From the NCBI RefSeq assembly GCF_054482595.1, contig NZ_CM137008.1: DNA of 64,000 nucleotides; one strand, 5' to 3'. A model generated the notes under the pieces. The model saw only the letters and a list, made by a program, of their open reading frames with translations, was not told the origin of the DNA and did no database searches. Of the stretch, positions 42,270 to 43,010 are shown piece by piece; the first letter of the stretch is position 1, and each line of letters starts with the position of its first letter. The translations under genes and the position numbers were made by a program.

Positions 42270-43010
42270 GCCGGATGCGGCGTGAACGCCTTATCCGACC
42301 TACGGTTCAGGCACAGGTTTGTAGGCCTGATAAGACGCGTAAGCGTCGCATCAGGCAATGGTGCTCGGATGCCGGATGCGGCGTAAACGCCTTATCCGGC
42401 CTACGGTTCAGGCACAGGTTTGTAGGCCTGATAAGACGCGTAAGCGTCGCATCAGGCAATGGTGCTCGGATGCCGGATGCAGCGTAAACGCCTTCTCCGG
42501 CCTACGGTTCAGGCACAGGTTTGTAGGCCTGATAAGACGCGTAAGCGTCGCATCAGGCAATGGTGCTCGGATGCCGGATGCGGCGTAAACGCCTTATCCG
42601 GCCTACGGTTCAGGCACAGGTTTGTAGGCCTGATAAGACGCGTAAGCGTCGCATCAGGCAATGGTGCTCGGATGCCGGATGCGGCGTAAACGCCTTCTCC
42701 GGCCTACGGTTCAGGCACAGGTTTGTAGGCCTGATAAGACGCGTAAGCGTCGCATCAGGCAATGGTGCTCGGATGCCGGATGCGGCGTGAACGCCTTATC
42801 CGACCTACGGTTCAGGCACAGGTTTGTAGGCCTGATAAGACGCGTAAGCGTCGCATCAGGCAATGGTGCTCGGATGCCGGATGCAGCGTAAACGCCTTCT
42901 CCGGCCTACGGTTCAGGCACAGGTTTGTAGGCCTGATAAGACGCGTAAGCGTCGCATCAGGCAATGGTGCTCGGATGCCGGATGCGGCGTGAACGCCTTA
43001 TCCGGCCTAC
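42270..43010. repeat. BIME array: 7 full 101-bp units plus a terminal REP
   Basis: Strict 101-bp period; each unit is REP + 17-bp linker + inverted REP + 14-bp linker; produces the ladder of 76-aa phantom ORFs. Confidence 0.85.

Follow-up and report, generated by a model that had tools for sequence, protein, structure and literature searches.

The gap between the convergent genes copA and ybaQ in a 64-kb stretch of E. coli DNA (64,000 nucleotides of contig NZ_CM137008.1, assembly GCF_054482595.1; hereafter the window) contains a BIME-2 array, the tandem form of the E. coli REP (palindromic unit) elements. Our best explanation, to which we assign a probability of about 0.9, is that seven BIME-2 units and an eighth y REP form a variable-number repeat in this untranslated gap, with copy changes probably driven by homology and with putative functions like those of the class. 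The feature is already known in kind and is present at the same locus of K-12 itself, with 2 units. It belongs to an ordinary, long-described type of E. coli intergenic repeat and is distinguished only by its seven units, where most strains carry 0–2. Its wider significance is accordingly small, a striking 743-bp repeat turning out to be a textbook BIME-2. The window is 100% identical to E. coli XH990 (NZ_CP019359), and the locus is laid out as follows:

39708–42212, plus strand: copA, Cu+-exporting P-type ATPase (Pfam E1-E2_ATPase, HMA and Hydrolase; RefSeq annotation of the identical NZ_CP019359)
42216–42262, plus strand: GC-rich hairpin without a U tract, directly 3' of the copA stop codon (fold −27.7 kcal/mol, z = −5.4)
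42269–43011, no strand assigned: BIME-2 array, 7 × 101-bp units and a terminal y REP (Tandem Repeats Finder, unit dissection, motif matches and published REP sequences)
43033–43375, minus strand: ybaQ, HigA-family HTH protein, convergent with copA (domain search and RefSeq annotation)

Tandem Repeats Finder resolved a single array at 42269–43011 (period 101, 7.4 copies, 97% matches, 0% indels, score 1416) and no other strong tandem array in the 64-kb window. The original prediction had placed a strictly 101-bp-periodic array at 42270–43010, and both the coordinates and the period are correct. Cutting the array at 42269 + 101 × i gave seven full units and a remainder of 36 nt, in which the y REP of an eighth unit is complete. 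Each full unit has the same layout:

Unit positions 1–35: y REP, ending in CTAC on the plus strand
Unit positions 36–52: 17-nt linker, GGTTCAGGCACAGGTTT, between the y REP and the z2 REP
Unit positions 53–89: inverted z2 REP, starting with GTAG on the plus strand
Unit positions 90–101: 12-nt linker, ATGGTGCTCGGA, after the z2 REP

The array thus comprises 15 REP hairpins (8 y and 7 z2) in alternating orientation, the y REPs all sharing one strand and the z2 REPs the other. The CTAC foot is present in 8/8 y REPs and GTAG in 7/7 z2 REPs, and the z2 REP and both linkers are invariant across 7/7 units. Across the whole window, REP motif matches numbered 11 of y type and 7 of z2 type, compared to none in 100 shuffles. 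Single y-type REPs also occur elsewhere in the window, at 831, 50116 and 61601.

Comparison with published REPs supports these assignments at the level of individual bases. All eight y REPs lie 0–2 bases from the published y REP TGCCGGATGCGGCGTAAACGCCTTATCCGGCCTAC, and those of units 2 and 4 are identical at 35/35 positions to the y-type query sequence published by Durrant et al. The z2 REPs match the published z2 GCCTGATGCGACGCTGGCGCGTCTTATCAGGCCTACG at 34/37 positions; both stem arms are identical, the mismatches falling on two bases of the loop and on the final base, beyond the CTAC foot, and the z2 REPs are clearly unlike the shorter z1 query. At the end of the array, positions 42977–43012 agree at every base with GCCGGATGCGGCGTGAACGCCTTATCCGGCCTACGA, the 36-nt consensus for E. 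coli REPs given in the RepRanger paper. Folded locally, the y hairpin reaches −21.3 kcal/mol and the z2 hairpin −21.9 kcal/mol (z about −4 to −7), values that assume the local hairpins to be the relevant co-transcriptional structures; minimum-free-energy folds of long stretches pair y with z2 across units. Both folds are imperfect, with an internal 1–2-nt mismatch in each stem, and three stem polymorphisms destabilise the y hairpin, leaving it at −13.9 to −17.5 kcal/mol.

This anatomy narrows the originally proposed ‘BIME array’, which holds, to BIME-2: tandem, alternating y and inverted z2 REPs joined by short linkers. A BIME-2 is defined as z2 and y with a short linker S and flanking s/l/r, in tandem copies whose number varies between strains (Ton-Hoang et al. 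2012, PMC3333891). In the nomenclature of Gilson, Bachellier and Hofnung (PMC3333891), the array shares with this class the y/z2 alternation, the shortness of the linkers, the tandem copies, the position at gene 3' ends and the strain-variable number. We find no substantive difference from the class and nothing that contradicts the assignment, the array being one 7-unit allele at one of about 200 BIME-2 sites. Independent support comes from Rfam's naRNA4 model, which was derived from the REP325 BIME-2 and matches all seven units with scores over its gathering threshold (see below). Both linkers are short, at 17 and 12 nt, and are the same in every unit; the 12-nt one differs from the l linker of REP325, with which it was compared. 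BIME-1 (RIP/RIB) elements resemble it in presenting an inverted REP pair at a gene 3' end. They are, however, single copies of z1 and y with a long, IHF-binding linker L (PMC3333891), whereas here we find z2, a 17-nt linker and a tandem arrangement, and no IHF core motif was present in the array units. At the copA–ybaQ locus of the K-12 RefSeq record, repeat features are not annotated.

Two other repeat identities were considered and rejected. The MLVA marker ms32, used in E. coli/Shigella typing, has the same 101-bp repeat size and an allele range of 1–5.5 copies, but neither of its primers matches the window even with up to 3 mismatches allowed; the marker does show that tandem repeats of 101-bp length are already in use as length markers. 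A CRISPR array is rejected by the segments between REPs, which are identical in all units, and by an Rfam scan that returned no CRISPR match in the array.

The array is extragenic, lying between the 3' ends of copA and ybaQ with 56 nt from the copA stop codon to the first REP and 21 nt from the last REP to the ybaQ stop codon. The flanking genes, copA upstream and a convergent ybaQ, are those named in the original prediction; ybaQ is additionally annotated as frameshifted here. In this strain it is a pseudogene, with a +1 insertion of A near 43319–43320, and its remnant is a 97-aa ORF at 43033–43326 that keeps the HTH domain. Within the array itself, overlapping ORFs of 76 aa on the plus strand and 50 aa on the minus strand recur at 101-bp spacing (42358–42588, 42459–42689 and so on) and could suggest that the repeats encode protein. 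We give that reading practically no credence: as 101 is not divisible by 3, the reading frame changes from one unit to the next, and the ORFs are repeats of one sequence built of known non-coding palindromes. They are, moreover, shortened or missing in other strains, where the copy number falls to 0.

GC-rich stem-loops 3' of stop codons also recall intrinsic terminators, from which the hairpins of the locus differ in having no U tract. Between 42100 and 43600 no intrinsic terminator was predicted on either strand, against 2.1 expected in shuffles, and no U tract follows any array hairpin; on these grounds we reject the array hairpins as Rho-independent terminators. As no intrinsic terminator precedes the array, both convergent transcripts would be expected to run into it. 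In alignment, the left arm and loop of the hairpin at 42216–42262 are also found in the REP-free strains A26 and STLIN_13, in which its right arm diverges.

The units differ from one another at four variable columns, all within the y REP: 11 (G/A), 16 (A/G), 25 (A/C) and 30 (G/A). The three columns described in the original prediction are real, but the fourth, column 11 (gcggcg or gcagcg), had been missed. We named the resulting types A (16G, 30A), B (array consensus), C (11A, 25C), D (25C) and, for the partial unit, E' (16G), so that the array reads A B C B D A C followed by E' (no strand assigned):

42269–42369: unit 1, type A (16G, 30A), y hairpin −15.3 kcal/mol
42370–42470: unit 2, type B (array consensus), y hairpin −21.3 kcal/mol
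42471–42571: unit 3, type C (11A, 25C), y hairpin −13.9 kcal/mol
42572–42672: unit 4, type B, identical to unit 2
42673–42773: unit 5, type D (25C only), y hairpin −17.5 kcal/mol
42774–42874: unit 6, type A, identical to unit 1
42875–42975: unit 7, type C, identical to unit 3
42976–43011: terminal y REP, type E' (16G), the sole REP left in ‘0-unit’ strains such as EC261

Units 1 and 6, 2 and 4, and 3 and 7 are thus exact identities. Column 25 alternates between A and C from unit 2 to unit 7, giving a two-unit (202-bp) super-period over six units. Units 2–3 and 4–5 differ at 1 of 202 bases, that base being in column 11, and are therefore not identical 202-bp blocks. Unit D, which carries column 11 of B and column 25 of C, looks like a hybrid of the two.

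An array of 743 bp made of 97%-identical repeats exceeds short-read length, which raises the concern that its seven units are an assembly artefact and that the true array is shorter or longer. Other assemblies could be read in the same direction: the old assembly of Santai has a very different internal make-up within identical flanks, and the assemblies of B and BL21(DE3) are one unit apart. The concern is answered by five independent complete assemblies from different hosts (XH990, 88COLEC, SM107, APEC37 and AHM21C2872I), which are 100.0% identical over the whole 1741-bp locus, variant order included. In addition, W619 is one base off, YZMc3-1 has the identical unit order, and the K-12-derived assemblies of our genome sample (7–8) agree on 2 units. 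We therefore treat the array as real, and an artefactual length as scarcely credible.

The original prediction had described such arrays as hotspots for copy-number change, to be compared across E. coli genomes. A query made of the flanks alone matched 5,422 of 5,426 complete E. coli genomes, with a single match in nearly every one, and array length was taken as the span between the flanks in each record. Coverage in a whole-locus BLAST search was rejected as a proxy for copy number, the overlapping pieces letting 1-unit arrays ‘cover’ 100% of the query. Among the complete genomes typed, the locus holds 0 to 8 units, the largest count being 8:

0 units: EC261
1 unit: O157:H7
2 units: K-12
3 units: B
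4 units: BL21(DE3)
5 units: 2824
6 units: GDSC2227PM
7 units: XH990 and at least 10 others
8 units: ATCC 8739

An evenly spaced sample of 59 genomes besides the query gave the following distribution:

0 units (terminal y REP alone): 14/59
1 unit: 14/59
2 units (K-12 derivatives): 8/59
3 units: 1/59
8 units (ATCC 8739): 1/59
No REP, with a RelE/ParE-family toxin gene upstream of ybaQ: 14/59
ybaQ absent: 6/59
Partial match only: 1/59

The 60 best-scoring records for the whole-locus query comprised 11 with 7 units, one with 6, 27 with 5, 15 with 4 and 6 with 1. From the sample and these best 60 together, the 7-unit state is rare but not unique, occurring in at least 11 genomes. The locus is clearly polymorphic, and its description as a copy-number hotspot is borne out both by the range of 0–8 units and by genomes with identical flanks and differently ordered arrays (see below). 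As about a quarter of the sampled genomes are without REP and many have a single one, no particular copy number can be essential. The 7-unit allele is probably a rare, near-neutral length variant of one clonal lineage. With 0–8 units and two REP-free haplotypes, the copA–ybaQ spacer is usable as a length marker for E. coli lineages.

Unit typing in 18 other genomes gave an indication of how the array changes. One such comparison is with 2824, whose array has the order A B D A C and lacks exactly one 202-bp block of the window's; its left flank shows no difference from the window in 799 bp, and its right flank is 2.7% divergent. The window's array becomes that of 2824 through a single deletion bounded by units 2 and 4, which are identical. 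For the reverse direction, hand enumeration of all breakpoints found none that yields the window's array from a 5-unit parent without an extra change in column 11, and we reject a single-step origin by unequal exchange from such a parent. As the reverse requires a duplication as well as the column 11 change, the more parsimonious account is a deletion in 2824, not a recent duplication in the window's lineage. Of the duplicated two-unit block that had been proposed, the pattern therefore stands, in the alternation of column 25 and in the single 202-bp block that separates the window from 2824, but its direction and recency are not shown. The reappearance of unit 1 as unit 6, also pointed out originally, is an exact identity specific to a sub-lineage; it is common to 2824 and absent in GF66.1 and TUM13936.

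Strains with the same surroundings can carry different arrays. The flanks of GF66.1 match those of the window at every base for about 800 bp in both directions, yet its units are ordered A B C B C B D; each of the four differences from the window lies in a variable column. Santai likewise shows 0 flank differences over about 800 bp on each side and a different unit order, with 20 differing positions within the array and four to five copies of a private variant, figures to be taken with caution in view of the age of the assembly. Type C is old, as judged from its occurrence also in ATCC 8739, GDSC2227PM and TUM13936, and ATCC 8739 has five consecutive identical C units. K-12, B and BL21(DE3) reach 2, 3 and 4 units through added consensus units. 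Judging from these alignments, the array evolves by gains and losses of one or two units and by homogenisation, and does so faster than its flanks, as strains with identical flanks carry differently ordered arrays. This agrees with the published statement that ‘BIMEs exhibit exceptional length polymorphism’. The internal variant order is for the same reason unfit as a slow phylogenetic character, changing even between identical-flank strains.

We consider it likely that copy number changes in 101-bp or 202-bp steps, as near-identical units misalign in homologous exchange or undergo replication slippage. A different engine is conceivable in the TnpA-REP/RAYT transposase (yafM), which would have built the array and would still be its main remodeller, cutting at the CT sites of iREP and linker and joining BIME units, with little part for homologous exchange or slippage. 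In assays in vitro, TnpA-REP bound REPs whose foot is GTAG and whose stem has a mismatch, cut both strands of BIMEs and built tandem BIME copies, and a model of diversification followed by amplification has been published (PMC3333891); 15/15 array REPs keep GTAG/CTAC and the stem mismatch. Against a leading role for the enzyme, units that are 97–100% identical over 101 bp are ample substrates for RecA-dependent exchange or slippage, and steps of whole units or 202 bp bounded by identical units, along with the hybrid-looking unit D, are what homologous misalignment would be expected to leave. There is also no rayT gene within the 64-kb window, a search restricted to the window. We therefore regard remodelling mainly by RAYT as possible but doubtful. 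In the REP-free strains A26 and STLIN_13, the empty site measures 57 bp from the copA stop codon to the ybaQ stop codon. The REP of filled strains is bordered on both sides by 18–23 bp that cannot be aligned to the empty-site sequence, and the difference between empty and filled sites is for that reason not a clean palindrome insertion.

For the function of a variable BIME-2 in this position, published work on the class offers several precedents. First, REP hairpins are described as shielding the mRNA upstream of them from 3' exonucleases and as promoting Rho-dependent termination or attenuation. Second, gyrase cleaves BIME-2 preferentially in vivo, y more than z2 and independently of transcription, as a property of the class. 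Lastly, BIME-2 can block the diffusion of transcription-induced supercoils. By analogy, the stable hairpins of the array (about −21 kcal/mol each) would block 3'-to-5' exonucleases and favour Rho-dependent attenuation, and its DNA would be a preferred site of gyrase binding and cleavage and possibly a barrier to transcription-induced supercoils between the converging genes. The array lies where two genes converge, and copA is copper-inducible, a setting that fits roles in RNA protection, attenuation, gyrase binding and supercoil restraint. The suggestion that the array may act as a terminator or insulator likewise fits the published BIME work, if taken as Rho-dependent attenuation and topological insulation. 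Topo-seq supplementary data were searched for copA and ybaQ and neither was found, and a literature search returned no paper combining copA, ybaQ and REP.

Conceivably, the length of this array is not neutral. Either 7–8 units could tune the fate of copA mRNA or shield ybaQ from copper-induced read-through and supercoiling, or the array could be a preferred breakpoint for homologous recombination between lineages, with BIME gain tied to toxin loss. In our sample every BIME-bearing genome is without a HigB-like toxin beside ybaQ, and every toxin-bearing genome is without REPs. We hold the two versions, taken together, to be very improbable. The breakpoint version draws on 2824, with its left flank identical to that of the window and its right flank 2.7% divergent.

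The array might also be a source of small RNAs, in view of the following matches:

42324–43007, minus strand: seven head-to-tail matches to naRNA4 (RF02564), 79.4–89.3 bits against a gathering score of 59.5

Each of these minus-strand matches consists of a y REP, the 12-nt linker and a z2 REP, in the direction of ybaQ transcription. The units match the naRNA4 covariance model over its full length (1–77), with both hairpins nearly consensus. Three further matches lie on the plus strand, at 63.6–64.3 bits and so also over the gathering score of 59.5. By analogy with REP325, the array might then be primarily a gene cluster for naRNA4-like nucleoid-associated RNAs, in which read-through from ybaQ would be cut to two-hairpin RNAs of 77–78 nt that bind HU and bridge DNA cruciforms. 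REP325, the naRNA4 locus between yjdM and yjdN of K-12 (PMC4550694; RF02564), is likewise a BIME-2, of six Y-l-Z2 units, and Qian et al. 2015 (PMC4550694) report transcription of about 80% of REPs and find condensation to depend on the pair of hairpins. A discrete naRNA4 with HU binding and DNA condensation has, however, been demonstrated for REP325 only (PMC4550694), which is a different locus and whose linker between the hairpins (12–14 nt) differs from that of the array at about half its positions. Any BIME-2 would score with the naRNA4 model, as the model essentially recognises a y REP and a z2 REP. Most E. coli, furthermore, have 0–2 units or no REP at the locus, and ybaQ is weakly characterised and is frameshifted in this strain. 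We consider a primary role as an RNA gene cluster unlikely and retain the variable-number BIME-2 as the preferred reading.

The z2 REPs of the array also coincide with a known insertion target. The exact natural target of IS621 ATCAGGCCTAC, a bridge-RNA element of the IS110 family, occurs in every array z2 REP, giving 7 sites, but no IS is present there in the window. In OkiPb01711, IS621 is inserted precisely in the z2 target site at the copA–ybaQ locus. Seven perfect natural targets of the IS621 bridge recombinase in a row are relevant to the use of wild-type IS621 in such strains.

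All four polymorphic columns of the window's array fall within the y REP, which accounts for 36 of the 101 unit positions; no unit varies in its z2 REP or in either linker. Three of the four columns weaken the y stem, either at its base or adjoining the natural mismatch. This y-REP bias may be due to chance, because arrays of other strains vary outside y, at columns 38, 48, 57, 61, 70, 72, 73, 77, 94 and 95.

Unit number also differs among strains. K-12-derived assemblies carry two units in 7/7 cases, and of the two B-lineage assemblies E. coli B has three units vs four in BL21(DE3). 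The latter difference amounts to one consensus unit, and is either a laboratory-history change or an assembly difference. We also compared window 41470-43810 with strain 2824, whose left flank is identical (0/799 differences) but whose right flank has diverged at 21/780 positions. This one-sided pattern in the aligned sequences places a recombination junction in or immediately beside the array.

The array is rich in sites for IS621, a bridge-RNA IS110-family element, with seven of the ten perfect targets in the whole window. In strain OkiPb01711, which has a one-unit array at the copA-ybaQ locus, IS621 sits exactly in the z2 REP target ATCAGGCC^TAC (positions 855-2132 of that region, L009).

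IS621 target sites in the window's array (exact match, minus strand)
42321
42422
42523
42624
42725
42826
42927

Outside the array, no tandem amplification was found at the dispersed REP/BIME sites of the window, which comprise y-type REPs and REPs bearing the IS621 target. A weak 33-bp tandem repeat was observed at 35876-35964 (2.7 copies, 73% matches, score 95).

Dispersed REP/BIME sites in the window
831-864 (+)
883 (-)
9118 (+)
50116-50149 (+)
61555 (+)
61601-61634 (-)

Comparison of window 42213-43512 with three further intervals (L014, L015 and L016), together with a 60-row sample of complete E. coli genomes, revealed three haplotypes of the copA-ybaP interval. Within the sample, REPs and a toxin gene are mutually exclusive at this interval. 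The toxin gene encodes a RelE/ParE (HigB-like) protein, and is found either intact or frameshifted.

Haplotypes of the copA-ybaP interval, with counts in the 60-row sample
(i) BIME/REP present, toxin gene absent: 38
(ii) REP absent, 57 bp between the stop codons of copA and ybaQ, with the toxin gene upstream of ybaQ: 14
(iii) ybaQ absent, its place taken by an unrelated GC-rich stretch of ~430 bp: 6

In the window, ybaQ itself (43033-43375, minus strand) harbours a +1 A insertion near 43319-43320 relative to K-12 and ET350, and RefSeq labels the gene 'frameshifted' in XH990, Santai, W619, YZMc3-1 and GF66.1. Because the extra base brings an ATG into frame, a 97-aa ORF remains (43033-43326), retaining the whole HTH_3 domain. 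Elsewhere in the neighbourhood, the gap between ybaP and ybaK holds a full-length Rfam match to sroB (the ChiX sRNA) at 44306-44389 on the minus strand, the same placement as in K-12. This match scores 82.1 bits vs a gathering threshold of 44.
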